64,000 bases of DNA from an uncultured Methylococcaceae bacterium (lineage in GTDB: Bacteria; Pseudomonadota; Gammaproteobacteria; Methylococcales; UBA1147): assembly GCA_964528035.1 (NCBI GenBank), contig CAZGQY010000002.1, forward strand, positions 4,531 through 68,530. The letters are read 5' to 3'. The notes under the pieces were generated by a model. The model searched no databases, was not told where the DNA came from, and saw only the letters and a list, made by a program, of their open reading frames with translations. Numbering within the stretch: position 1 is the first letter of the stretch; every line of letters starts with the position of its first letter. Position numbers and translations under genes: made by a program. This document shows positions 2,856 to 14,516 of the stretch, in pieces.

Positions 2856-3136
2856 TCATTCGCTGCCAGCCAGGAAAAGTGAATACGAAGGCTGGTAGTC
2901 CCCGGGAGGCGTAGGTCATGTTGGATACCCGTCGTGCGGAGCGCCAGAGGGGATCCGAAATTACATCCGAAACGCCGTTCCGCCATTTGAGGCAGTCCTG
3001 GCGTAACGTTTATGAAGTACTATGTGGAGCCGTGACGAACGCAGGGCAGCCGGGGCTCAATGGTTGTCGCGTAGGCGAGTCGATTCTGGTTGACTCGGAT
3101 GTCCCGCAATCTTTCACGAGGTAGCGACTCACTTAT
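2856..3136 (+). repeat. ~280-bp dispersed element, copy A (putative structured ncRNA or IS110-type non-coding end)
   Basis: 2861-3136 matches 10318-10593 with 6 substitutions in 276 bp, and is homologous in blocks to the reverse complement of 6678-6970. Confidence 0.9.
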
Positions 3137-3164
3137 CCGAGGGTCGCGGTACAGGATGATTTAA

Positions 3165-3485
3165 ATGAAACTAAAGCGACTATACATCTTAGCTATTATG
3201 TTTTTAACCTTAGGCTCTTGCTCAATTCTCGCCGCTCCAAGTTGGTCGCCTTATGCCAATGTTGCTGAGATTAGAATATCTAAGGGCAATCTGTATGTGC
3301 AACTATCGGGCAATATACTCAACACCTGCGCCAACTTTGCAGTAGTCAATATTAGCTCGGAAGGAGCTCCTCAAATGTTCGCCATGGTGATGGCTTCCTT
3401 TACGAGCGGCAAACAGATTGGCTTATACCTCTCTGATAGATGCGATCCAACCTATTACTCCTTGCTTGGAACGAGAATCAGGTAG
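3165..3485 (+). CDS. Small secreted protein, two Cys, paralogue of next gene
   Basis: N-terminal signal peptide (LYILAIMFLTLGSCSILA). Shares the SW.PY...IS.G.LY...C...K.I.L...C...G.RI pattern with 3492-3905. Confidence 0.75.
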   Translation: MKLKRLYILAIMFLTLGSCSILAAPSWSPYANVAEIRISKGNLYVQLSGNILNTCANFAVVNISSEGAPQMFAMVMASFTSGKQIGLYLSDRCDPTYYSLLGTRIR

Positions 3486-3491
3486 GTAATA

Positions 3492-3905
3492 ATGAAGTCG
3501 CAGTGTGGATCGATGGTAGCTCGTTGGGCTTATATTGTATTGACGGTTCTTTCCCTGCATCTCGTCACACGATCTGCGCTTGCAGAAAAGACGATCGAGC
3601 AACCGACTTCAGTATCAGCACCAGCCCAAACCACTAAAGATGCGACCGAAAGCTGGGGTCCATACGAACATTTGAGCGTCGTTGAAATATCCAATGGCCA
3701 CTTATATTTGAAATCACCTTCTTATACTGTTTGTAGCGCCGGAGGCTTTCTGGCACTAGACATGACTTCAGGCACGGAATGGATAGAGTATTACACTGCG
3801 GCTATGATGGCCAACGCCAAAAACAAGAGAGTTAGCCTGCGTATTAATAGCTGCAATAATTCGACCTACGTGCCAGCGATTGGTATTCGTTTGAACGGGC
3901 AGTGA
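3492..3905 (+). CDS. Small secreted protein, paralogue of previous gene (likely start ATG 3513)
   Basis: Signal peptide MVARWAYIVLTVLSLHLVTRSALA. Stop overlaps the next start (GTGATG). Confidence 0.75.
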   Translation: MKSQCGSMVARWAYIVLTVLSLHLVTRSALAEKTIEQPTSVSAPAQTTKDATESWGPYEHLSVVEISNGHLYLKSPSYTVCSAGGFLALDMTSGTEWIEYYTAAMMANAKNKRVSLRINSCNNSTYVPAIGIRLNGQ

Positions 3906-5401
3906 TGCAAAAACAAATTCGAGTTACCCTAATATTATTGATTTGCTTAGCCACCTTTGCTGGGACTTTATTTGCGTCAAACGAATATACTGCACTATTT
4001 CAAGATAATTTTGGTCCTATCAAAACCGTTAAGAGAATCACAGTAGATGGCACGCATGCCACCATTACGGACCTAAATGGCAATGAAACATCCGGTGATG
4101 CCTGCCAACTACTTGGTTGCGCTGGTTCTACCCTTATAATCGAAAACTTCAAGATCACAGCCACAGATATAGGCCCTGAAGAAGCTTGCATTCGGCTAAA
4201 AAATAGGTCGAACATCATCGTGCGCCATAACTTTATAGGGCCGTGTTCAGGCACTACGAAATGGATAGAAAGGGCATGGGCAATTTTGGCAACTGGCAAC
4301 GGCAATACGACCTCAATTAGTGTCGAAGAGAACAAATTTAGGGAGATTGAAGCTGGCGTGCGTCTCGATCGTCTAGAAGGCGGTGCATCGATAAGCAAAA
4401 ACACCTTTTATGAGTTAGATACTACGGTCAACCTAAAGACAGGCGTGATCAGCTTAAAAGATGTTAGGGGAGCAGGTAATAGAATTGAATATAACCAGAT
4501 TATCATTAGCACAGAAAACTGTTCGAAAGTAGCCTATGACAACCCAGATTTTGATACCATAAGTGTATACAACAGTCGTGGCACAGCCGCTTCGCCAATC
4601 CAGATCGTTGAAAATCGGGTGCATGGCAGCAGTTGCCCCAGTGCACCACCACCTGGGCGCCTTCGTTCAGGGGCAGGCATCATTGTTGATGGTAAGTGCG
4701 TCGATCTATCAGGGGGCAATGGCGCCTTAGATCCAAATAAGTTATGTTTAGAAAGACCGCAAGACCATTGGAATGGTTACATCCACATTAAAAACAATAC
4801 CTTAGTTAATGCCGGACCGCAACAGACGATCGTTATTAGTGGTGGCCGAAATATAGCCGTCGAAGGTAATCGAATTTATACTAAAAGCACTACCTATTCG
4901 AATCCAATAGTTTATTCTCATTTTCAACCTATAGGCATGTCTGATTATTGGATCACTGTCTAATTTAAAAATGGCGATACTGTCGCTGCGAGCGCAGATG
5001 ATTGTAGTTCGGTTGGTGGCACAACTTGCCCATATATGCGCCAGGGGTCGTGCTATAACGTCACATTTAAGGACAATAAAATACAATTCCTCAGAAATGG
5101 AACTCCCGATCCTTCTGTGTACATCCCGCATGTGAATGAGTGGGATGAAAACTATGTCTATGGTACTAACCCACACATGCCGCCCACCCCACGTAGGCCA
5201 GACGACAAACCACCACCATGCCCAGACGGAAAACTAACGAAACCATGCGAGGGCTATAACACCTGTTGCGCTGGCGAGTTCAAAAACGGATGGTGTGCTG
5301 ATTTTTATGAAGCGCCAAGCAACTACAACCGCAATCCCTTAAAGGGAACGGGCAATGTCTATTCCGACTTTAGTTTAACGTCTGAGATTTTGATCAAATG
5401 A
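3902..5401 (+). pseudogene. Secreted right-handed parallel beta-helix protein interrupted by one in-frame TAA (4961-4963)
   Basis: Signal peptide and beta-helix repeats (NIIVRHNF, SISVEENKF, NRIEYNQI, IHIKNNTL, IAVEGNRI). After the TAA the same frame stays open (FKNGDTVAAS...CPY) and joins ORF 5036-5401, which has another repeat (NVTFKDNKI). Confidence 0.75.
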
Positions 5402-5832
5402 GGAAATAGAGCAATAAAAAAACGGTAGTTTTAGTCCAATCAGAATATAATAATCGACCTGTAAATTGTCAATTTCGGTTGGGACCAATCGGGGGGATAT
5501 TAGGCGAGAATGAACATCCTCCAATAACCGGAAACTGTCCTGAGTTGCTTTTCACCCAAGTACGACACTTAACGCCGTATGTATTTGATAATAAAAGACC
5601 TGTGGTGAGGAAATGGCATTACACGGCGTCGATCGCGGGTTTTGTTCCTCCTAAATGCTTGAATAAATCGAGCTGTTCAGCATATAGATAATCGTAAAAA
5701 TACTGCGATAATTGATCAGGGAATTTGAGGGTTGAAGACTATTTAAATTTGTATATTATCCGTGAACGGGAAGATATCCCTTTCAGACCTACAAAGATCA
5801 AATCTTAACTTTGTGATTGCGATCATGTTTTT

Positions 5833-5870
5833 GGACAAGATGTCCGAATCCGAATAATGACTTGTTAGGC
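5833..5870 (+). other. Right arm of an attC-like site
   Basis: ...TAATGACTTGTTAGGC with core GTTAGGC at 5864-5870, 7 nt before the ATG at 5877. Resembles the right arm at 7977-7993. No clean left arm found. Confidence 0.45.
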
Positions 5871-5876
5871 GTACAA

Positions 5877-6575
5877 ATGAAACTTTACAAATTTAGGTCA
5901 TTCACTCCATTCGAGTACTTGGCCGATATTTTCGTTCACGGTCGGCTATTTTGCTCTCCGTATCAAAATCTCAATGATCCGTTTGAAGGTGTCTTCATCG
6001 CTTTGATTCCTACGGACTTCGGTCGTGGATTTGGACTAAATTTCGGAATGGGAGGCACTGCTGAATTGTTGAGGACTGTCGATGACATTGACGGAGATGC
6101 CATTGCCAACAAACGAGTATGCAGTCTTTCAAAATCGTGGACTGATGTTCGCATGTGGTCACATTATGCCGATGGTCATAGAGGAGTGGCCATTGAGATC
6201 GATTTCAATGGGCTAGAAGACGAAGTTCGTGAGGTGCAGTACATCGACTCCATCGAAAAGTTTGCGTCAGGTATACTTGCCGAAAGCCCAGATGCCGGTG
6301 CATTGTTGTGTAGAAAGACATTCCATTGGGATTACGAGCAGGAATTTCGGATCCTCGGTAGCGGAGAATATTTTCAGATTGAAGGCCGTATTGGGAAAGT
6401 CTATGTAGGATCGCGGATGCCGGCCAACCACAAGAACCTCTTGCGACAACTCCTACCTTTGGGCACTCGACTGGTGGATACAGAGTTGGAGAAAAATGAC
6501 ATTACCGTTCGTGAGACTCACAGTAGAGCTCTCGATCAAGGCGAGAGTGTTGCAAACAAAGGCAATCGGCGGTGA
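5877..6575 (+). CDS. DUF2971-family protein (cassette-like ORF)
   Basis: Motifs LYKFRS, LNDPFEG, VCSLS, MWSHYADGHRGVAIEIDF and K..HWDYEQEFR. ATG 5877 is in frame with the track ORF. Confidence 0.85.
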   Translation: MKLYKFRSFTPFEYLADIFVHGRLFCSPYQNLNDPFEGVFIALIPTDFGRGFGLNFGMGGTAELLRTVDDIDGDAIANKRVCSLSKSWTDVRMWSHYADGHRGVAIEIDFNGLEDEVREVQYIDSIEKFASGILAESPDAGALLCRKTFHWDYEQEFRILGSGEYFQIEGRIGKVYVGSRMPANHKNLLRQLLPLGTRLVDTELEKNDITVRETHSRALDQGESVANKGNRR

Positions 6576-6677
6576 TTGTGCCGTTCACAATATTACACAG
6601 GCGCTTGCCTGTGCCTAAATCAAGTACTGACTTGTTTACGCTGTAAAGCGCGAATGCTCCAGGACGTTATCCCGGTT

Positions 6678-6970
6678 ATAAGCGAGTCGCTACCTCGTGA
6701 TAGATTTCGGGACATCCGAGTCAACCAAAATCGACTCGTCTACGCGACAACCATTATTGCCCCGACCGTCCTGCGTCCGCGCCGCTTCGCCACACCATTG
6801 CAAGCTCGGCGCAGGCTACACAACACTCCCTCAAATGACTGGACACGATTATTCGGATGCCTACTTTGTTTTCCCTCTGGCGCGATTCGCACGCCGGAAA
6901 AACAGTGCGGCCTGATCGTTATCGGGGACTCATCGCCTTCGTTTTACTCTCCATGGCGTTCAGCGAATGA
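6678..6970 (-). repeat. ~290-bp dispersed element, copy B (diverged, inverted)
   Basis: Reverse complement shares ordered blocks with copy A (TCATTCGCTG, ACGAAGGC, AGTCCCC, GCGCCAGAGGG, CATCCGAA, CATTTGAGG) and a near-identical 3' ~75 nt ending GAGGTAGCGACTCGCTTAT. Confidence 0.85.
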
Positions 6971-7031
6971 AGTTTCAACTACCGGATTGCGCCGGTCGCG
7001 AGTCTATCGCGTGACCGTCCGCAGATAGTCC

Positions 7032-7060
7032 ATTACTGACCATTCCAAATGGTCAATAAT
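7032..7060. promoter_or_regulatory. 13-bp inverted repeat upstream of the recombinase (candidate binding or recombination site)
   Basis: ATTACTGACCATT-CCA-AATGGTCAATAAT, one mismatch, 31 nt before the ATG. Confidence 0.6.
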
Positions 7061-7091
7061 TTGGTTCCTTTTTACAGAAGAGGAACTAATC

Positions 7092-7718
7092 ATGGATCAA
7101 TCTACCAACTCAAATAGTGAAAAAGAACCCTGGAATAAAGGCAAACTGGTGGGTCAAAAACCACCGCTAAATCTCAAAGAAATCTGGGCCATCCGGATCC
7201 GGTTGCAACTCGCAAATCGAATTCGTGACCTAGCCCTGTTCAATTTAGCCATCGATAGTAAATTGCGTGCCTGCGATCTGGTGAAGTTGAAAGTCCGAGA
7301 TGTATCTCATGGAGATCGAATTGCAAAAAGGACGATGGTGTTGCAACAAAAAACCAAACAGCCCGTCCAGTTCGAAATCATGCAACAAACGAGAGAAGCC
7401 ATTTTTCTGTGGATCAATCATGTCAATCTAAAACAAAATGACTACCTCTTTCCAAGCCGAATCAAAAATTCTCCCCATTTGTCGACGCGACAATATGCCA
7501 GGATTGTGGAATCATGGGTTGTATCCATAGGCCTTGATCCAGCAGCTTATGGGACACATTCACTTCGTCGAACTAAAGCGTCTTTGATATACCGACGGAC
7601 CAAGAATTTAAGGGCCGTGCAGTTGCTCTTAGGGCATACGAAATTGGAAAGTACCGTTCGCTACCTAGGGATTGAAGTTGATGATGCATTGGAGATGGCG
7701 GAACAAACCGAAGTTTAA
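7092..7718 (+). CDS. Small tyrosine recombinase/integrase (PWNKGKLVGQKPPL family), intact catalytic residues
   Basis: DSKLRACDL (R), QKT (K), GTHSLRRT (HxxR), LLGHTKLESTVRYLG (H, Y). 208 aa. RBS GAGGA. No IntI-type insertion domain. Confidence 0.93.
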   Translation: MDQSTNSNSEKEPWNKGKLVGQKPPLNLKEIWAIRIRLQLANRIRDLALFNLAIDSKLRACDLVKLKVRDVSHGDRIAKRTMVLQQKTKQPVQFEIMQQTREAIFLWINHVNLKQNDYLFPSRIKNSPHLSTRQYARIVESWVVSIGLDPAAYGTHSLRRTKASLIYRRTKNLRAVQLLLGHTKLESTVRYLGIEVDDALEMAEQTEV

Positions 7719-7735
7719 TAGCGGATTTTTATCGG

Positions 7736-7779
7736 AAGCGGCTGTTTTTAACAGTCGCTTTGTGCTCAGGAGCTGACGT
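7736..7779 (+). other. Hairpin plus palindromic site just downstream of the recombinase
   Basis: AAGCGGCTGTT-TTT-AACAGTCGCTT overlaps GTCGCTTTGTGCTCAGGAGCTGACGT; related motifs recur at 9936 and 10000. Confidence 0.55.
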
Positions 7780-7845
7780 ACGTGAAATTTTTCGCTTGCC
7801 CCAAGCTAAAAGTCAATAAGCGCCTTCAAGGTTTCTGTTAGAAAC

Positions 7846-7993
7846 TACTAACAACGTCATAATCTACGGAATTGGATATCATGTTGTTTTAGGATGATAT
7901 ACAGTTAAGCAATTGGACCGAATTCACAAAATCGTTGTCTTGGAAACGAAAAATTGGGAAGATATGTGGAAACTTTATAATTGCTTGTTAGCT
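7846..7993 (+). other. Candidate long attC site
   Basis: CTAACAA at 7848-7854 pairs with TTGTTAG at 7985-7991. Partial inner symmetry (CATAA/TTATAA, GATATC/GATATG). Precedes the ORF at 8025. Confidence 0.45.
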
Positions 7994-8024
7994 GCGTTTG
8001 GAGCATGGAGCTAGATTAATAACG

Positions 8025-8783
8025 ATGCTATATAAATTTACTCCCACCCTAGATATCGCTGAAAAAGTCTCTACTGGAATATTCCGCTTCTATGAATTAA
8101 CCAAGTATATAAAAATGGAAGATGAAGTGGGACGATCAGATCCAGAAGAGTGCTCGGTTAGTTTTCCTACTAAAGAATATGAAGAATTCCCAGACAAGCT
8201 ACCTATAGGTAGCTTCAGAGGCATTGAATTCAAATGTATTAGCACTGGAAATAACGAGGAACATATTAGGCAATATTTTGTGTTTTGCATGAGCACAGAA
8301 ATGGATAAAAAAGCAATTGGTGACTCTAGATATATTGTTGAACTTTATCGAGATAACTTTGATTTATTTATGCAGCTCCTAAACGAACCATTTGATGATT
8401 CTGCAAATCCCGAAGGTCACCAGTTCTTTAGTCATGGTGAGGTGAAGTACTACAACATACATAACCACCCTAAACCGTTTATAGGAAATAGGTGGCGTGA
8501 GGTGTTTGTAAAACACTCTGATTTTAATTATCAAAATGAATATCGGGCAGCCTTTTTTGCTTCAGATCACTTCTTTGATAGAATTTCAGGTAACCCCATG
8601 GTGATCGAGAAAAAAATATTCGATCAAAATAAGGAGCCAATGAGTTTTAATTTGGAGCTGTATGTTCAGTCAGGTATCGATGATGAGGGTTGGCGCTATA
8701 TTGAACTTGATATTTCAGGGTTCGCTGCCAATATAAGCCCTGAACAAAGTAACATTACAGAGCTTGTTGCTGAGATAACTTGA
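8025..8783 (+). CDS. Hypothetical cassette protein, distantly DUF2971-like
   Basis: MLYKF start, FVFCMS and VKHSDFNYQNEYR echo the DUF2971 motif order. Followed by a clear attC. Confidence 0.7.
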   Translation: MLYKFTPTLDIAEKVSTGIFRFYELTKYIKMEDEVGRSDPEECSVSFPTKEYEEFPDKLPIGSFRGIEFKCISTGNNEEHIRQYFVFCMSTEMDKKAIGDSRYIVELYRDNFDLFMQLLNEPFDDSANPEGHQFFSHGEVKYYNIHNHPKPFIGNRWREVFVKHSDFNYQNEYRAAFFASDHFFDRISGNPMVIEKKIFDQNKEPMSFNLELYVQSGIDDEGWRYIELDISGFAANISPEQSNITELVAEIT

Positions 8784-8796
8784 ACATTCAAGCAGC

Positions 8797-8862
8797 AGCT
8801 AACAAGGCCAGCCAGAGGGGCTTTCGCACTACGTACTCCCGCCCCTGCTGGCGGCGTTAGAG
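8797..8862 (+). other. Integron attC site (59-be type)
   Basis: Inverse core AGCTAAC and core GTTAGAG. Left arm GCCAGC[C]AG[A]GGGGC vs right arm GCCCCTGCTGGC gives two unpaired bases (G and T on the bottom strand), the canonical extrahelical pattern. Next ATG is 5 nt downstream. Confidence 0.85.
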
Positions 8863-8866
8863 CATC

Positions 8867-9748
8867 ATGCTACAGGATGCACCGCAGATAACCGAAGAAG
8901 ATCTTCAGAAATGCAGGGACACTGGCGACTATAGCCCCGTAATGTTCGAATGGTACAAGTTTGTGGCGGGTCTATGTGTCACGTTTTCAAACTTACTCCA
9001 AGAATCGCCCGTGATCCGTAAAGACATCTCAGAAAGAGACTACGGAATACTTATTGGCCTGATTAATCGGGCTTACCGATTAATGCTAACCAACGTGGCC
9101 CTTTCTCACGAAGGGGAATTCGGCGAATCTACAAGTATCCTTGATCGCTGCATATTCGAAAGCTGCGTCATTTTGAGTTGGCTATGTGCCACAAATACCG
9201 AAGATAGATTCGATCGATATGTTGCGTCAGGTCTTAGGACGGAGCTCGAGCTAAAGGACCAAGTTAATCTCGCCCTTGAGAAAAGAGGCGGAGATGTTCT
9301 CTTAATCGAGAAACGAATGTTGGACTCTGTTGCAGACTGTATTGCGGAAGCGGGTTTTGTTGACGATCAGATTCGAGAAATGAAACCGCTTCCTAATCTA
9401 GCAGCGATGCTAGAAGCCCTTGGTTACAAGCGCTTTGCTTATACAGCGGGCCAAAGAATCGGATCGCATCATGTTCATGGTACTTGGGTAGGGTTAAGAA
9501 ACCATTTCATTGAGAAAGAGGAAGATACTGGTCGTTATCGCGCACGACAGAAAAGTTACACTCATATCAACCAATATGTTTACATTACGAGTATTGTATT
9601 AGCTGCACTATCTAAGTTCGTTGATTTCGTATTTGAAGATGCCGATGAGGAAAAGGGCGAGATATTAAATCTATTTGAATCTACGGACGAAAATATACGA
9701 ATGCTAAATATTGAAATCGTTGGTGGGGATTTCGATGCGATTGCCTAA
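8867..9748 (+). CDS. DUF5677-like (HEPN-type) cassette protein
   Basis: ILDRCIFESCVILSWL (R..FE) and GSHHVHGTW motifs. Promoterless start directly after the attC. Confidence 0.7.
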   Translation: MLQDAPQITEEDLQKCRDTGDYSPVMFEWYKFVAGLCVTFSNLLQESPVIRKDISERDYGILIGLINRAYRLMLTNVALSHEGEFGESTSILDRCIFESCVILSWLCATNTEDRFDRYVASGLRTELELKDQVNLALEKRGGDVLLIEKRMLDSVADCIAEAGFVDDQIREMKPLPNLAAMLEALGYKRFAYTAGQRIGSHHVHGTWVGLRNHFIEKEEDTGRYRARQKSYTHINQYVYITSIVLAALSKFVDFVFEDADEEKGEILNLFESTDENIRMLNIEIVGGDFDAIA

Positions 9749-9800
9749 AGTGTCCACGAAAGTCGTGCTAGATCACGCACCTATTTCGCAGGCGTTAACC
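9743..9800 (+). other. Degenerate attC candidate
   Basis: GCCTAAA overlaps the stop codon and GCGTTAACC lies 58 bp later; inner arms pair poorly. Confidence 0.3.
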
Positions 9801-9845
9801 AATTCAATATAAGGCCCGCTGTCCGATTCAGGTTGACTCTTGCCT

Positions 9846-10020
9846 GTCGCGACTCTATCCCGTGACTGCCCGGAGTTAGTCCTTTCCAGTCAGACGAAAT
9901 ATTTAACCCATGATTCGAGCAGCTTGGAGACGATTGACCGGTTGTGCTCAAGTGCGGACGTTCGCGTATCGATGAAAGTCTTATTGCGACCGGCTACAGT
10001 CTGTGCCAAAAGCAGGCGTT
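9846..10020 (+). repeat. Cluster of short palindromic sites related to those flanking the recombinase
   Basis: 9846-9872 matches 6995-7021 at 23/27. 9936-9962 and 10000-10020 share TGTGC(T/C)..A..GC.G(A/G)CGT with 7754-7779. Confidence 0.6.
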
Positions 10021-10317
10021 CGTTAAAAATTCCCTATCTGTGTTCCTATAAGCAAAAAGCTAGACGCGCGCTCTAAGCCGTTGGGGCATTGGAAAGAAGT
10101 ATCACTGGCACTGAAAGAACATTTAGATTTTTAACGCCAGAGATTTCTTCAAAATGGGATTTGTTGCCAATTTGGCCAAATTCTATCGCGATCAAATTGA
10201 TATCGAATAAAAACAATTGTATCGTATCAATGACAAGACTTTTTCTAAAAATGAGCATGGGTTTTCGGTCTACAAATGGGGCTTAATGTAGACGAGGCGT
10301 CACTTAATTGCTGCGAC

Positions 10318-10593
10318 CGCTGCCGGCCAGGGAAAGTGAATACGAAGGCTGGTAGTCCCCGGGAGGCGTAGGTCATGTTGGATACCCGTCGTGCGGAGCG
10401 CCAGAGGGGATCCGAAATTACATCCGAAACGCCGTTCCGCCATTTGAGGCAGTCCTGGCGTAACGTTTATGAAGTACTATGTGGAGCCGTGACGAACGCA
10501 GGGCAGCCGGGGCTCAATGGTTGTCGCGTAGGCGAGTCGATTCTGGTTGACTCAGATGTCCCGAAATCTTTCAGGAGGTAGCGACTCGCTTAT
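10318..10593 (+). repeat. ~280-bp dispersed element, copy C
   Basis: Direct repeat of 2861-3136, 270/276 identical. Confidence 0.9.
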
Positions 10594-11606: not shown

Positions 11607-13038
11607 ATGAGCGCTAAATATTTTTGCTTCCGTCAACCAGTTTCACCCGTCACCGGTTGTGGCATCTGTTTTCAAAACAACAATGTTTTAGGATTAACAC
11701 GACCTGGAAAATTATTCATTATTCTTTTCGGTTTCGCTTTGCAAGTCATAATTCCTGTAAACAGCGAACCGCTTAAACTCGAGTACACCTCGCCTCCATC
11801 GCCTGACATGCCGGCGAAATCAATCGAGATTAATGAACCCCGCGGGGAGTTATCGTTGGCTACGGCTTTGTCGCTGGCTTTGTCGCACAATCCAACACTA
11901 GCTGCTGCATCCCGAGAAATCCAAGTACAGGATGGAGTCGTCCAGCAAGCGGGACTTCTGCCTAACCCGGTATTCGGCGTATCGGCTCAGAACTTCGCAA
12001 ATTCAAGATTGCAGGGAGTTGACGGTGATGCGCTTAATTGGAGCCTTTCTCAAACTGTTCTGCTCGGCGGTAAGCGCGCCAAAGCGATCCGGGTCGCGGA
12101 GCTTGGTCGGGAGCTTTCCGTATGGGACTACGAAAGCAAACGAATGGATCTATTAGCCGAAGTTGTGCTGAGTTATATCGGTCTTGTAAAGGCTCAGCAG
12201 GGATTGAAACTTGCCGATGGCCTGGTAAAGCTTGCCGACCATATGATGGAGGCGGTCACTGTCCGTGTCAAAGTCGGCGAAACTTCACCAGTGGATGAGA
12301 CACGCGCCCGGGTAAGTCTGGCTTCCATACAAATCGAAAAGCAGCGCGCGGAGCGAGCATTGGCAACGGCGCGAAAACGGCTGGCGGCCACCTGGGGCAG
12401 TGCCTCTCCGGAATTTGAAGTTGCCCAAGGCCAACTGGAAACGGCAAAACCAATTCCTTCTTTCAGTGCTTTGATGGATCGCATTGCTCAAAACCCCCAA
12501 TCTTGCCCGCTGGGCCAGCGAGACGATTCAGAGACAGGCGTCCATTGATCTGGCTAGTAGCCGTGCGATTCCGAATCTGACGATCAGCCTCGGGGTTCAG
12601 CAATACCTAAAGACCGGTGACAATGCTTTAGGTGCGGGAATTTCGATACCCATACCCCTTTTCAACCGCAATCAGGGCAATATTCTCCAGGCCAACCGGC
12701 GTTTCGACAAAGCCCTGGATCGACAACGGGAAACTCAAGTTTTGGTCAGCACAACTCTGAATACAATCTATCAGCAATTTTCCGCTGACTACGCCGAGCT
12801 CAGCATTCTTGAAACAACGGTCCTGCCGGGTGCGCTAAGCGCCTTCGAGGCCGTGCAGGAAGGTTATCGCCGGGGCAGATTTAACCTGTTGAATGTACTC
12901 GATACACAGCGCACGCTGTTTGACGCCAAAATACAGCATCTAAGGGCTTTGGCAAGTTATCACCAATCGAGGATCAAGATACAGCGTTTGATCGGAGAGC
13001 CTCCTGAAACGGCGCAAAGCTTGGAGGTCAAAAATTGA
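11607..13038 (+). pseudogene. czcC: CzcC-like TolC outer-membrane factor split by a +1 frameshift
   Basis: ORFs 11607-12548 and 12484-13038 encode consecutive TolC halves. Removing one C from the C5 run at 12494-12498 restores RIAQNPNLARWASE. Confidence 0.85.
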
Positions 13039-14516
13039 AAAATCTACAAGCAGTTGCATGCCAGATGCTCAATATTCCATTCACGATGACAGTCGGTCAA
13101 AAATCAGGCGGCCTTCCATCGGAACCACCAGTGAGCTTTGGATCTTCAGTCAGAACAGATAAGCGAGTCGAAATCATGGATCATTTAGAAAGTAGCTTAA
13201 TAAGCCCCCTGATAGGCTTAATTCTTCTTATTCTTGTACCTATTCATGGGCAAACAAACCAACTGGATTACAAGAATTCTAATCCGACGATGCCAAATAA
13301 GGAACACGTGAACGAAATTGAGGAGCAACACGCACACGACAAACATGCTAACGAAAGCGGCAAAAACGCCCGTGAAGGCGAAAATCATAACGATCATGAT
13401 GTCGGTAAAGAAAAAATGGACCATGAAAACGAACAAGACGAGCATAACTCGCTCAAATTCAGTCCGGATGTACTTAAAGAGTTTGCCATCAAATTGGCAC
13501 AAGCGAATTCCGGGTCCATTAGGGAAACATCGCTCCTGTCGGGCGAAGTAGTTGTTGCTCCCGACAAGCTTTTTCACGTTATCCCTCTGGCGGCCGGCGT
13601 GGTCCGCAAAGTCTTCAAACAATTAGGTGACAGCGTCAAACAAGGCGATTTATTGGTAACGCTTTCCAGTCGGGAACTGGCTAATGCTAAAACAAAGCTC
13701 GTTGCTGCCAACAGCCTCTTGCGGTTAGCTGACGCGAGTCTGAAACGGGAGCGCGAACTGTATAAGAAAAAGGTCACGGCTAAACGGGAATATCTTGAAG
13801 CAAAACAGGCTCAAACTAAGGCGGCTATCGAGCTTAAATCAGCCAAACAAGGCCTTTTGGCCTTAGGGTTATCCATCCAGGATGTAGTTTCAGTCCTTCG
13901 TTCTAGTGGCGACGATTTGACGCGTTATGAACTTCGTTCTCCGGCAGAGGGCATCATCATTTATAAACACGCAGTTCATGGTGAAATTCTGAACACTGAA
14001 ATCAAAGCTTTCACTATCGCGGATCTGGATCGGGTATGGATTAATTTGACCGTTTATCAAAAGGATTTGCCTCTTATTCATAAAGGTCAGGCCGTACTGA
14101 TCTCTACACGCCATGGTTCGTCGGCGGAACAGTCAGAATTTCGCGGTGTTATCGATTGGATCAGCCCGACCCTTTCCGAATCCACCCGCAGCGGCACGGC
14201 GCGGGTCATACTTGATAATGTAAACAGGCGATGGCGTCCCGGGTTGTTCGTGAATGGAGCAGTTGTCATAGCTAAAACCGCAGCCAAAGTCGTCATTCCG
14301 CGAAGCGCATTGCAGAATATTGAAGACCGGACCGTGGTCTTCGTCCAGGAAGGCGACGAATTCGAGCTGCGGCCGGTACAACTGGGCCGAACAGACACCC
14401 ACCGGGTAGAAATCGTGCAAGGTCTTGAGTCGGGCGAAACCTTTGTCAGCAAAAATGCTTTTACTCTCAAAGCACAAATGTCAAAGAGTGCATTTGGCGG
14501 CGGACACTCGCATTAG
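13035..14516 (+). CDS. czcB: CzcB-type membrane fusion protein with His-rich N-terminus (likely start ATG 13176)
   Basis: GDSVKQGDLLVTLSSRELA, YELRSPAEG, LDNVNRRWRPGLFV; His/acidic tract; ends GGHSH. Confidence 0.9.
   Translation: MKNLQAVACQMLNIPFTMTVGQKSGGLPSEPPVSFGSSVRTDKRVEIMDHLESSLISPLIGLILLILVPIHGQTNQLDYKNSNPTMPNKEHVNEIEEQHAHDKHANESGKNAREGENHNDHDVGKEKMDHENEQDEHNSLKFSPDVLKEFAIKLAQANSGSIRETSLLSGEVVVAPDKLFHVIPLAAGVVRKVFKQLGDSVKQGDLLVTLSSRELANAKTKLVAANSLLRLADASLKRERELYKKKVTAKREYLEAKQAQTKAAIELKSAKQGLLALGLSIQDVVSVLRSSGDDLTRYELRSPAEGIIIYKHAVHGEILNTEIKAFTIADLDRVWINLTVYQKDLPLIHKGQAVLISTRHGSSAEQSEFRGVIDWISPTLSESTRSGTARVILDNVNRRWRPGLFVNGAVVIAKTAAKVVIPRSALQNIEDRTVVFVQEGDEFELRPVQLGRTDTHRVEIVQGLESGETFVSKNAFTLKAQMSKSAFGGGHSH

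Follow-up and report, generated by a model that had tools for sequence, protein, structure and literature searches.

Three gene-less repeats of about 280 nt lie in the 64,000-nucleotide window (the whole stretch of DNA analysed), which raises the question of what they are and how they came to move. A sequence-only reading had suggested that they might be RNA-bearing ends of an IS110-type transposon or an RNA class tied to the neighbouring tyrosine recombinase. We find that they belong to a family of small mobile DNA elements that carry no gene and had not been described before, very likely non-autonomous, as that reading had also supposed; repeats of this kind go well past chance, the same element occurring at more than 170 independent loci. 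The copies and their surroundings are as follows.

2857 to 2860, plus strand: 5' flank tetranucleotide of copy A, C-ATT, a TAM-like target motif (read from sequence)
2861 to 3135, plus strand: copy A, full length, Methylococcales-like subfamily (nhmmer hmm positions 2-292, E=4e-65; family alignment)
3036 to 3135, plus strand: 3' module of copy A (88-94% identity between subfamilies; columns invariant in two alignments)
3136 to 10317, no strand: accessory island of low GC, 7.2 kb, bracketed by A and C (GC content, Pfam)
6679 to 6965, minus strand: copy B, full length, second subfamily (nhmmer E=2e-74; family alignment)
6679 to 6779, minus strand: 3' module of copy B
6966 to 6969, minus strand: 5' flank tetranucleotide of copy B, C-ATT (read on the minus strand)
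7092 to 7718, plus strand: tyrosine recombinase, 208 aa, Phage_integrase domain (Pfam)
10314 to 10317: 5' flank tetranucleotide of copy C, C-GAC
10318 to 10592, plus strand: copy C, full length, 6 positions different from A (nhmmer)
10493 to 10592, plus strand: 3' module of copy C

Copies A and C form a direct repeat of 276 nt (2861-3136 and 10318-10593; 98% identity, 6 mismatches), and copy B, on the minus strand at 6678-6968, is diverged, its 3' 78 nt being 94% complementary to A/C and its 5' 200 nt retaining the ordered short blocks of A/C in the alignment. The positions, mismatches, strand, blocks and near-identical 3' end had all been described correctly beforehand. The distinction drawn between A/C and B was also sound: they are two separate subfamilies coexisting in the window, and the nearest relatives of B are L079, L104 and L149. 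The limits of the copies required adjustment, since all three start at CGCTG (2861, 6965 on the minus strand, and 10318) and finish with ...GCGAC-TC-R-CTTA at 3135, 6679 and 10592 (+/- 1 nt), copy A running from CGCTGCCAGCC to GGTAGCGAC-TC-A-CTTA. The TCATT preceding A and B is flank (C-ATT), and thus copy C is not 5'-truncated but merely has a different flank (C-GAC). The copies share no conserved reading frame, as had been noted, and indels in the family alignment have lengths not divisible by three; two ORFs of 68 aa (2918-3124 and 10375-10581), annotated as genes in metagenome records, are probably spurious.

Hosts of the family are sulfur-oxidising and methane-oxidising Gammaproteobacteria, with ~55 true matches in GTDB genomes, at least 117 loci in metagenomes and one copy on a 65-kb viral contig. 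A single Methylococcales MAG holds ~25 copies at 98% identity and has contigs that end within the element; the repeat unit in this multi-copy genome is the 280-305 nt element alone. Element length across the family is 160-310 nt (full length ~275-310 nt), and deletion derivatives of 160-200 nt, likewise multi-copy, retain the helices P1 and P2 described below together with the 3' module. Many further copies are 5'-truncated with intact 3' ends, their breakpoints clustering just upstream of the 3' module, which is the part that survives in truncated and deleted copies alike. Neither a gene inside the element nor a consistently linked neighbour gene was found, and dispersed copies sit beside ordinary housekeeping genes. 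Relative to flanking genes their orientation is unbiased (19/14 upstream, 47/46 downstream).

The ends of the family are sharp (CGCTG...GCGAC-AC-N-CYTK), and a C stands at -4 (flank C-NNN) in 45 of 46 distinct copies, the NNN between that C and the element varying even among near-identical copies of one organism. Insertion occurs in a single orientation, directly 3' of C-NNN, with target bases neither duplicated nor lost, as seen in a filled/empty pair in which the empty site reads GTGCAC-T|TTT-GAATGG and the filled site GTGCACT[element]TTTGAATGG (in the orientation of the element, insertion at CCATTCAAA^AGTGCAC). A target site duplication (TSD), sought at all offsets, is absent from 45 of 46 copies, the exception being a perfect 9-bp TSD at L054. 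The 3' end of the element itself carries a tetranucleotide, C-Y-T-K, similar to the flank C-NNN, and the 3' boundary can be placed only to within 1 nt.

Covariation analysis supported a conserved fold. RNAalifold predicted 50-59 pairs from the family alignment, and 24-25 of these show compensatory changes; by pair counting, 96.9% were paired versus 83.3% in shuffles (0/500 shuffles reach it), with a covariation score of 0.371 versus 0.133 in shuffles and 35-45% pairing in slid controls. Conserved G-U pairs fix the folding strand as the plus strand of A and C. On this one strand a multi-helix fold is conserved: the very first nucleotide opens a 5' hairpin, P1, and a dispensable central domain is closed off by a long-range helix, P2 (CCCCGG/CCGGGG), which brings P1 beside the near-invariant 3' hairpin module. 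That module, the most conserved part of the family, consists of GACGCAGGG..CCGGGG (the 3' strand of P2), a linker, the 3' hairpin GUCGC-[GUAGG]-CG-hairpin-CG-[AGGUA]-GCGAC and a tail. The helix common to the family is GAUUUUGG/CCAAAAUC with cap GGAUGUCC; the hairpin GAGTCGA/TTGACTC, previously singled out, exists in the copies of this genome and is limited to them. The segments between conserved blocks, which had been taken for guide-like variable inserts, are both strands of covarying helices that pair with each other, not free insert, and their complementarity to the flanks is not beyond chance. The description as an orphan, unnamed, non-coding and structured scaffold stands, while IS110 descent, guide loops and a recombinase link are not supported.

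Our best explanation, held tentatively and at slightly less than an even chance, is that the three copies represent a new non-autonomous family, IS200/IS605- or REP-like, mobilised by a Y1 HUH enzyme acting in trans. In this scheme a Y1 HUH tyrosine enzyme, probably RAYT/TnpA-like, would use the terminal hairpins tagged with GTAG as its recognition sites, cut the top strand on the 3' side of the flank C-NNN and again on that of the terminal CYTK, release it as single-stranded DNA and join it to a new site 3' of another C-NNN; the main role of the conserved fold would be to bring both ends together on a single strand. GTAG, the tag of RAYT substrates (PMC8266576, PMC3733652), is present 4-5 times per element, always 5' of a hairpin. 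Y1 HUH (RAYT-type) genes of two families lie at or adjoin copies in ~6 independent loci, mostly convergent with the element 3' end, where by our rough estimate fewer than one such locus is expected by chance.

Insertion of IS200/IS605 ('peel-and-paste') elements takes place downstream of a TAM and leaves no TSD; the elements possess a transposon-end motif, and their gene-less derivatives, the palindrome-associated transposable elements (PATEs), depend on the Y1 HUH TnpA (PMC10055086). Like the element, PATEs are gene-less, strand-specific and multi-copy, lack terminal inverted repeats, have hairpins at both ends, insert precisely 3' of a flank motif without TSD, bear a related motif at their own 3' end (TAM/TEM) and need an enzyme in trans (PMC10055086); unlike them, the element has a flank motif with one fixed base, a left hairpin at the very end, a conserved covarying fold over its whole 290 nt, beyond the ends, and, as far as found, no autonomous relative with the same ends. 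REP/REPIN sequences with their RAYT (TnpA-REP) transposases (REPtrons) likewise show GTAG 5' of hairpins, dispersed intergenic copies in Gammaproteobacteria and an enzyme encoded elsewhere, presumably a domesticated Y1 HUH protein (PMC8266576, PMC3733652, PMC3116915), and RAYT-like genes recur beside some element copies. However, REPs measure 20-50 nt and REPINs, symmetric hairpin dimers, ~100 nt, whereas the element is 160-310 nt long, asymmetric and multi-domain, with copy numbers in the tens, not hundreds. Unlike in REPtrons, RAYT genes near copies are often truncated by the element, not flanked by it.

Other observations count against HUH mobilisation. No autonomous copy (the same ends around a transposase gene) occurs in ~200 loci and no Y1 gene within ~4 kb of the GTDB-genome loci. 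Elsewhere, genes homologous to the two RAYT families (61-86% identity) are accompanied not by the element but by different short inverted repeats of their own, so that no cognate enzyme emerges. In IS608-type elements a DNA guide reads the flank motif, a fixed tetranucleotide, and ~19 nt separate the left hairpin from the end; the present family has a single fixed base (C) and a P1 that starts at the end itself. This, like the TSD at L054, argues against the HUH reading. Frequent 5' truncation with intact 3' ends is not predicted by simple peel-and-paste, and the unremarkable single-sequence MFE z-scores (-0.67 and 0.04) also count against it. A covarying long-range fold whose hairpins are GNRA-like or GAA-capped and whose G-U pairs are conserved is more typical of functional RNA than of transposon ends.

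The fold could be that of a functional RNA on a PATE-like element, such as a new omega-RNA-like scaffold serving in trans a TnpB/IscB-type nuclease that is not linked to it, where the 3' module would act as scaffold, the 3' flank would supply the guide and DNA mobility would still be HUH-type, or that of another trans-acting structured ncRNA. Strong covariation throughout a multi-helix junction whose G-U pairs are conserved, a near-invariant 3' module stopping exactly at the element boundary and the persistence of solo 3' modules suit this proposal, and PATEs 'often encode omega RNAs' acted on in trans (PMC10055086). We nevertheless consider it unlikely: neither tnpB nor iscB adjoins the element in ~200 loci, Rfam contains no matching family, HEARO included, even at E<=10 with a 351-nt query, C-NNN is very degenerate as a TAM, proliferation continues in copies without ~40% of the fold, no conserved promoter was found upstream of the element, and orientation relative to neighbouring genes is unbiased. 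Retroposition of a SINE-like element, its structured RNA copied by a trans reverse transcriptase (RT) through target-primed reverse transcription from the 3' module, would account for the clustered 5' truncations, the extreme conservation of the 3' end, the 1-nt ambiguity at the 3' boundary (as microhomology priming would give) and the one 9-bp TSD. It is improbable in view of the precise 5' end and fixed C at -4 of full-length copies, the general lack of TSDs, the absence of an A-tail, the unaltered target bases of the filled/empty pair and the lack of any RT gene with the 3' module, the sole RT at element loci being that of a group II intron inserted within one copy. ERIC, Correia/NEMIS and bcr1 are structured, MITE-like intergenic repeats, short and with predicted stable single-strand folds like the element, and can be co-transcribed; they differ in their terminal inverted repeats and in the TSDs that DDE transposition typically leaves, neither of which the element has.

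Descent from transposase-less IS110/IS1111 ends (bridge/seek RNA modules) moved in trans, as ssr9 is by ISPpu9, is not without precedent, since an IS110 transposase can mobilise a solo RNA module (PMC12288879), and ssr9 resembles the element as a small module, the size of an RNA gene, that lacks a transposase, has solo copies and is propagated in trans (PMC12288879). The lack of TSDs and short subterminal inverted matches (CGCTGCC/GGTAGCG, 8-9 nt beyond the right one) would agree, and in L093 and possibly L106 the element is in contact with IS110-family sequences. However, a DEDD/IS110 transposase gene is present in cis at none of about 170-200 loci, the one clear IS110-family IS, in L093, lies inside the element, antisense and with unrelated ends (ATGGACCCCTCCC/GGGAGGGGTCCAT), and the variable regions are paired, not loops, without matches to the flanks. 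IS110 and ssr9 modules keep to a single fixed target and have end boxes in common with the IS (PMC12288879, PMC11208160), in ssr9 A'/B' boxes, a REP target and an AG core, whereas the element shares end boxes with no IS110 and has diverse targets with only the C at -4 in common, no long fixed target. This reading, now barely credible, was rejected, failing its own tests.

Lastly, the island between A and C encodes three small secreted or beta-helix ORFs, DUF2971, the 208-aa tyrosine recombinase and DUF5677 (Pfam), and contains copy B, divergent from the recombinase gene and 126 nt from its start. Contigs L002 and L003 carry the island; the empty allele, L219, is exactly 7457 nt shorter and has a single chimeric copy (5' SNPs of A, 3' SNPs of C), the island plus one element copy being a 7457-nt unit present or absent within the population. 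An island bracketed in this way, the exact A/C chimera and the position of copy B beside int would suit the element as attachment site or accessory RNA of the recombinase (A/C as attL/attR), yet the crossover interval is a 215-nt identity stretch that fits homologous recombination equally well. Such a role is very improbable, as the recombinase belongs to a huge family, no element lies within 5-6 kb at ten loci whose recombinases are 77-78% identical, no homologue is encoded at the ~200 other element loci, and copies are dispersed beside housekeeping genes; the recombinase is island cargo without specific link to the family. On our best explanation A and C are the duplicated recombination substrate through which the island entered, or leaves, a chromosomal copy lying between two metal-efflux operons, and copy B is an independent copy riding inside the island.

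The direct repeat formed by copies A and C was recovered both by reading the sequence and with a repeat finder (2861-3136 and 10318-10593; 276 nt, 98% identity, 6 mismatches), and copy B was confirmed on the minus strand at 6678-6968, its final 78 nt being 94% identical to A and C and the ordered short blocks being kept in its first 200 nt (alignment A1 of element copies). The proposed bounds stood in part: the 5' end is CGCTG (2861, 6965 on the minus strand, and 10318), but the TCATT that the sequence-only reading had included in A and B is flank, so that copy C is complete. No copy beyond these three was found in the 64-kb window by nhmmer, which recovered all element copies.

2861-3135, plus strand: copy A
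6679-6965, minus strand: copy B
10318-10592, plus strand: copy C
2918-3124 and 10375-10581: 68-aa open reading frame (ORF) wholly within A and C

The lack of a common reading frame was borne out, the 68-aa ORF not being conserved as a frame across the family; it is probably spurious, and is annotated as a gene in public metagenomes, at L004, L219 and L220 (L numbers denote loci from other genomes or metagenomes). The supposed variable inserts do differ in sequence between the blocks, but they are not guide-like, being the paired strands of helices P3-P4 and their neighbors in the fold described below. A/C and B are indeed of two kinds, but as two subfamilies: in alignment A3, A/C resembles the Methylococcales type and B the type seen in L079, L104 and L149. 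A diversity-generating (DGR) template/variable repeat was rejected on the grounds that the six A/C differences are not adenine-specific, and an integron attC site on the grounds that the element lacks the GTTRRRY core.

The element matches no described RNA family. The window gave no Rfam 15 match at the gathering score, and the region and one relative gave nothing relevant at E<=10, which agrees with the earlier description of it as an orphan element. A tRNA/tmRNA scan of the window found none, blastn against the PLSDB plasmids gave no match, a literature search with conserved sequence strings returned unrelated primers only, and no account of the element was found in the searchable literature. 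Utilizing a search pattern made from the conserved 3' end, we obtained ~55 true matches out of 83 pattern matches in the GTDB genome collection and at least 117 loci on metagenome contigs, where marine-sediment and vent samples predominate among the matches listed. The hosts are Gammaproteobacteria (Methylococcales, Sedimenticola, Sedimenticolaceae, Candidatus Thiodiazotropha, Chromatiales and unclassified MAGs), and one viral copy lies in a 65-kb IMG/VR contig beside an SSB/helicase/methylase module. The highest copy number observed per genome is ~25, at 97-99% identity, in one Methylococcales MAG whose k141 contigs begin or end within the element. Comparison of copies within genomes delimits the repeated unit as the 280-305 nt element alone, all-against-all comparison of neighboring ORFs revealed no consistently linked gene, and contigs bounded by two element copies carry ordinary chromosomal genes. 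The latter is also true of L028, L056 and L087, circular plasmid-like contigs that the element bounds, and a plasmid nature was rejected for them. The 7457-nt length of L009, equal to the A-C period, is a coincidence, since L009 has no sequence in common with the window. Orientation relative to neighboring genes is unbiased (upstream, 19 same and 14 opposite; downstream, 47 and 46); given this and the lack of a conserved promoter or terminator, a cis-regulatory leader or 3'-UTR element was rejected.

Of the 46 distinct full-length copies, 45 have a C four bases upstream of CGCTG. The three bases between the two differ even among internally near-identical copies of one organism, and across the 46 distinct flanks there is no conservation 5' of the C at -4 and no constraint on the 3' flank; the element's own 3' end reads C-Y-T-K. 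Target site duplications (TSDs) are absent from 45 of the 46 copies, both when every fixed offset is scanned and in a longest-common-substring test (4.24, against 4.15 for shuffled pairings). The exception, L054:5764-6065, carries a perfect 9-bp direct repeat, CGTTTCCAG, on its flanks, which is not explained by the mechanism proposed below. The idea that the upstream flank must form a hairpin was rejected, its mean MFE being only marginally lower than in controls (-8.8 vs -7.4 and -8.0). A filled site is seen in L192, where the element has inserted into a ~1.4-kb RAYT-type unit, within the non-coding sequence at its 3' end; three other copies of this unit, in L228, L114 and L172, are uninterrupted. 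The empty site reads ...GTGCAC-TTTT-GAATGG... and the filled site ...GTGCACT[CAAGGGTGTCGC...GGCAGCG]TTTGAATGG..., the target in element orientation being CCATTCAAA^AGTGCAC. Insertion was exact, 3' of C-AAA, and target bases were neither duplicated nor lost.

The predicted fold was derived from alignments A2 (18 sequences) and A3 (25 sequences), in which all sequences are <96% identical pairwise. RNAalifold returned 59 and 50 pairs, with compensatory double changes in 25 and 24, respectively. In A3, 96.9% of cells are paired, compared to 83.3% in column shuffles (0/500 reach the observed value) and 35-45% when partners are slid by 1-3 columns, and the covariation score is 0.371, compared to 0.133 in shuffles. 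Covariation, which had been put forward as a check on an RNA-like character, is thus present, with compensatory changes in both alignments and a score above that of column shuffles in A3. Single-sequence MFE z-scores of the element are unremarkable, and the evidence for the fold is therefore comparative, not thermodynamic. Because G-U pairs are conserved, the folded strand is the plus strand of A and C. The predicted parts, from 5' to 3', are:

P1: 10-bp hairpin from element nucleotide 2, with two conserved G-U pairs and three covarying pairs
P1 inner mini-hairpin: cap GAA, GAAA or AAA
P2: long-range helix CCC-CGG/CCGGGG, closing the central multi-branch domain
P3-P6: heavily covarying helices of the central multi-branch domain
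3' module, after a short linker: GUCGC-[GUAGG]-CG-(GAUUUUGG...CCAAAAUC hairpin, cap GGAUGUCC)-CG-[AGGUA]-GCGAC
Tail 3' of the module: AC-N-C-Y-U-K, unpaired

The alignments support same-strand subterminal hairpins at both ends, one being P1 at the 5' terminus and the other the GUCGC...GCGAC hairpin domain, which lies 6-7 nt from the 3' terminus. The motif GTAG occurs 4-5 times per element, each time just 5' of a hairpin: ahead of P2/the central domain, P4 and the 3' hairpin, and again in the 3' strand. Natural deletion variants of 160-200 nt, found in several genomes, lack the central domain and keep P1, P2 and the 3' module, and the B29_G4-type 3' module is present on at least 6 contigs of the B29_G4 MAG. 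Many copies are 5'-truncated with the 3' module intact, their breakpoints clustering just upstream of the module; no autonomous parent was found upstream of these copies.

Precise insertion in one orientation without terminal inverted repeats or TSDs is known from IS200/IS605 elements and their PATEs, REP/REPIN sequences, IS91/Helitron-type elements, IS110 elements and group II introns. The sequence-only reading had favored an IS110/IS1111 origin. The sequences of bridge RNAs and seekRNAs lie in the non-coding end of elements with a DEDD (IS110-type) recombinase gene, and these RNAs specify one conserved target of about 10-14 nt plus a core dinucleotide through unpaired segments, in two internal loops, that are complementary to the target and donor ends. 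In contrast, no IS110 gene was detected in cis at ~200 loci by tblastn and neighbor clustering, the 46 distinct flanks have only the C at -4 in common, and the variable segments of the element are covarying helices rather than unpaired targeting loops. The predicted match of variable segments to flanks likewise failed to appear, complementarity and identity between element interior and flanks being no greater than in shuffled pairings (longest matches 6.5 vs 6.5 and 6.35 vs 6.24). The IS110 reading thus fails for want of a cis recombinase gene, on the one-base target and on the pairing of the variable regions. What we do observe is IS110 elements inserted into the element. In the metagenome contig ORDP01003865 (L093:2568-3942), a 1.4-kb IS110/IS1111-type IS (Pfam DEDD_Tnp_IS110 and Transposase_20) is nested antisense in an element copy at a conserved CCAGCCAT|T motif and has its own 13-bp subterminal inverted repeats, ATGGACCCCTCCC/GGGAGGGGTCCAT, and in L106 a truncated copy is bordered by another, distant IS110 fragment. 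IS110 elements therefore seem to land in the element, as they do in REPs. The case of ssr9 and ISPpu9 shows that an RNA module on its own can be carried along by an IS110 enzyme, and such modules have end boxes and one fixed target in common with the IS (PMC12288879); these shared features are not seen for the element.

The richness of the fold is RNA-like, and the conserved structure could accordingly be that of a functional RNA, for example an omega-like scaffold used in trans, although we consider this unlikely. Omega RNAs are encoded beside or overlapping tnpB/iscB, or match HEARO or other omega-RNA models; no tnpB/iscB neighbor was found at the loci examined, and Rfam gave no omega-RNA match. 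Group II introns begin with GUGYG, contain the AGC triad of domain V and a bulged A in domain VI, and are at least ~400 nt long, whereas the element begins with CGCUG, lacks a D5-like hairpin, exists in minimal copies of 160 nt and has no intron match in Rfam. The 5'-truncated copies would suit a SINE-like retroposition, which we regard as very doubtful; the sole reverse transcriptase seen belongs to a group II intron nested in an element copy (L181:189-2253, L157:745-2812; 441-aa RT/maturase ORF).

The best-supported reading, which we hold tentatively and at somewhat less than an even chance, is a single-stranded DNA mechanism involving an HUH enzyme. A flank motif 5' of the left end with a like motif at the right end, end hairpins and scarless integration characterize IS200/IS605 elements and PATEs (PMC10055086). 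Like a PATE, the element inserts precisely and strand-specifically 3' of a flank motif without TSD, has hairpins set a few nucleotides in from both ends, and has a flank tetranucleotide 5' of its left end that resembles the last four bases of its right end. In IS200/IS605 PATEs, the TAM is a fixed sequence of four or five nucleotides, and the guide with which it pairs is located 5' of the left hairpin; unlike IS608-type PATEs, the element has only the C fixed in its flank, too little space 5' of P1 to hold a guide, and no known autonomous parent, no relative with its ends around tnpA (Y1) having been found among the loci examined. REP/REPIN units are palindromes of 20-50 nt or symmetric REP doublets of very high copy number, unlike the asymmetric, multi-helix element of 160-310 nt with at most ~25 copies per genome. 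The element nevertheless resembles REPs in having GTAG 5' of its hairpins, GTAG 5' of a palindrome being a hallmark of the substrates of REP-associated tyrosine transposases (PMC8266576, PMC3733652).

Genes of two Y1 HUH families lie beside some copies, namely RAYT1, which has a Pfam Y1_Tnp match and homologues named 'REP-associated tyrosine transposase' by their sources, and RAYT2 (~340 aa), whose homologues are named RayT by JGI. Y1/RAYT-like genes adjoin copies in L131/L126, L113, L153, L155, L172 (twice), L192 (twice) and L114, compared to a roughly estimated chance expectation of <1 locus; most of them converge on the element 3' end, and element copies cut into several. Simple insertion into the RAYT1 gene of L126 was rejected, the far side not being the rest of the gene and the locus being rearranged. 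RAYT homologues elsewhere (61-86% identity) have their own short inverted repeats and no element within 5-6 kb, those in L225-L230 having other flanking repeats, and no Y1 gene was found near the element copies in GTDB genomes. We therefore infer, and do not take as demonstrated, the involvement of an HUH enzyme.

A ~1.4-kb unit bounded by terminal inverted repeats, CCAGGACATCCAT...ATGGATGTCCTGG, contains the RAYT2-type gene. RAYT1 genes lie between short inverted repeats, GGGGTCAGGTCTTGC / GCAAGACCTGACCCC, which presumably represent the REP cognate to them; the downstream repeat overlaps the stop codon, and tandem arrays occur:

L228:5886-7244: RAYT2-type unit
L172:3203-4602 and 8226-9341: RAYT2-type units
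L192 and L114: RAYT2-type units
L225:2400-2560: RAYT1 flanking repeats
L226:895-1090: RAYT1 flanking repeats
L227:4960-4990 and 5845-5865: RAYT1 flanking repeats

The RAYT2 unit is multi-copy in one organism (Ga0316204-6 samples), with some copies frameshifted; its behavior is thus that of an IS and not that of a domesticated RAYT present once per genome. An 8-mer, GGATGTCC, common to the element 3' hairpin cap and the RAYT2-unit repeats was discounted as not significant alone. A large serine recombinase gene adjoins a 5'-truncated copy (hmm 25-292) in L114:1-1368 and L189:159-545, in opposite orientations relative to the element, which suggests an inversion polymorphism.

With P2 setting the 5' hairpin beside the 3' module, and natural deletions keeping exactly P1, P2 and the 3' module, our analysis suggests that the fold would serve to synapse both element ends on a single strand. 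In its mode of action it comes closest to a PATE/REPIN, as a non-autonomous, strand-specific unit without TSD, and is probably driven by an HUH enzyme. If so, it constitutes a well-defined new family among the few TSD-less, single-strand-dependent bacterial elements, of unusual size and with an elaborate fold whose minimal core can be deduced from natural deletion variants, and a tractable substrate for studying how RAYT/Y1 HUH enzymes pick cleavage sites with one fixed flank base. There is a real, though minority, chance that a new functional RNA, or a new RAYT substrate logic, is hidden in it; the element is also a candidate source of new structured RNA. Somewhat improbable is the specific proposal of a mobile unit built on a ~290-nt structured nucleic acid, either as a PATE with a new guide-RNA/ribozyme-like scaffold for an unlinked nuclease/recombinase or with the whole ssDNA fold as the RAYT-type transposition substrate; the latter would be the first 'giant REP', linking REPs, PATEs and structured RNAs. 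Practically, the element breaks up MAG assemblies of methanotrophs and sulfur-oxidizing symbionts, is mis-annotated as a 68-aa gene, and draws nested IS110 and group II intron insertions.

In the window, the element also provides homology for entry and exit of an accessory island beside metal-efflux operons. The genes of the A-C interval are low-GC and accessory, and the 7.4-kb island unit forms separate contigs in several metagenomes (L002, L003). In L219, from a sample shared with an island contig, an upstream RND pump is followed by a single element copy and the downstream OEP gene, 7457 nt shorter than in the window. In the L219 copy, the flank and two SNPs on the 5' side are those of A, and the four SNPs and flank on the 3' side those of C, the crossover falling within a 215-nt identical stretch; the island and one copy are therefore gained or lost by recombination between element copies. 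RecA-dependent recombination explains this, and the island's 208-aa tyrosine recombinase (window 7092-7718) may take part. The link that had been suggested between this recombinase and the element found no support, since the recombinase family shows no other association with the element, and the element was likewise rejected as its attachment site for lack of co-occurrence. The recombinase belongs to a very large, highly conserved family (>8000 database clusters match), the top matches among those listed all being ~208 aa at 75-89% identity, many on 1-3 kb contigs. The loci L209-L217 (in L209, 1690-2252) have a homologue beside a ~350-nt segment that is bounded by ~28-nt inverted repeats, TTATGTATAGATCTCAACTATGTATAGG, and looks like an invertible phase-variation switch; no repeats of this kind were found beside the window's recombinase gene. 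In L001 (137 kb, another sample), the island is identical as far as window position 9950 and then gives way (L001:6938 onward) to a PIN-domain toxin gene, rnr and rlmB, not copy C. The island or a variant therefore also occurs at another site, L001 being either a second genomic context or a strain rearrangement.

Two RND efflux operons enclose the element and island. The window encodes at least four RND pumps of the CzcA/CusA-like kind, which are paralogues of one another (repeat families D2 and D3) and are accompanied by OEP and MFP partners:

26-2302, about 15744, about 25263, about 62580, and 11607-14516: RND/OEP/MFP genes

Membrane-fusion-protein genes also adjoin element copies in L009, L018, L042 and L173.
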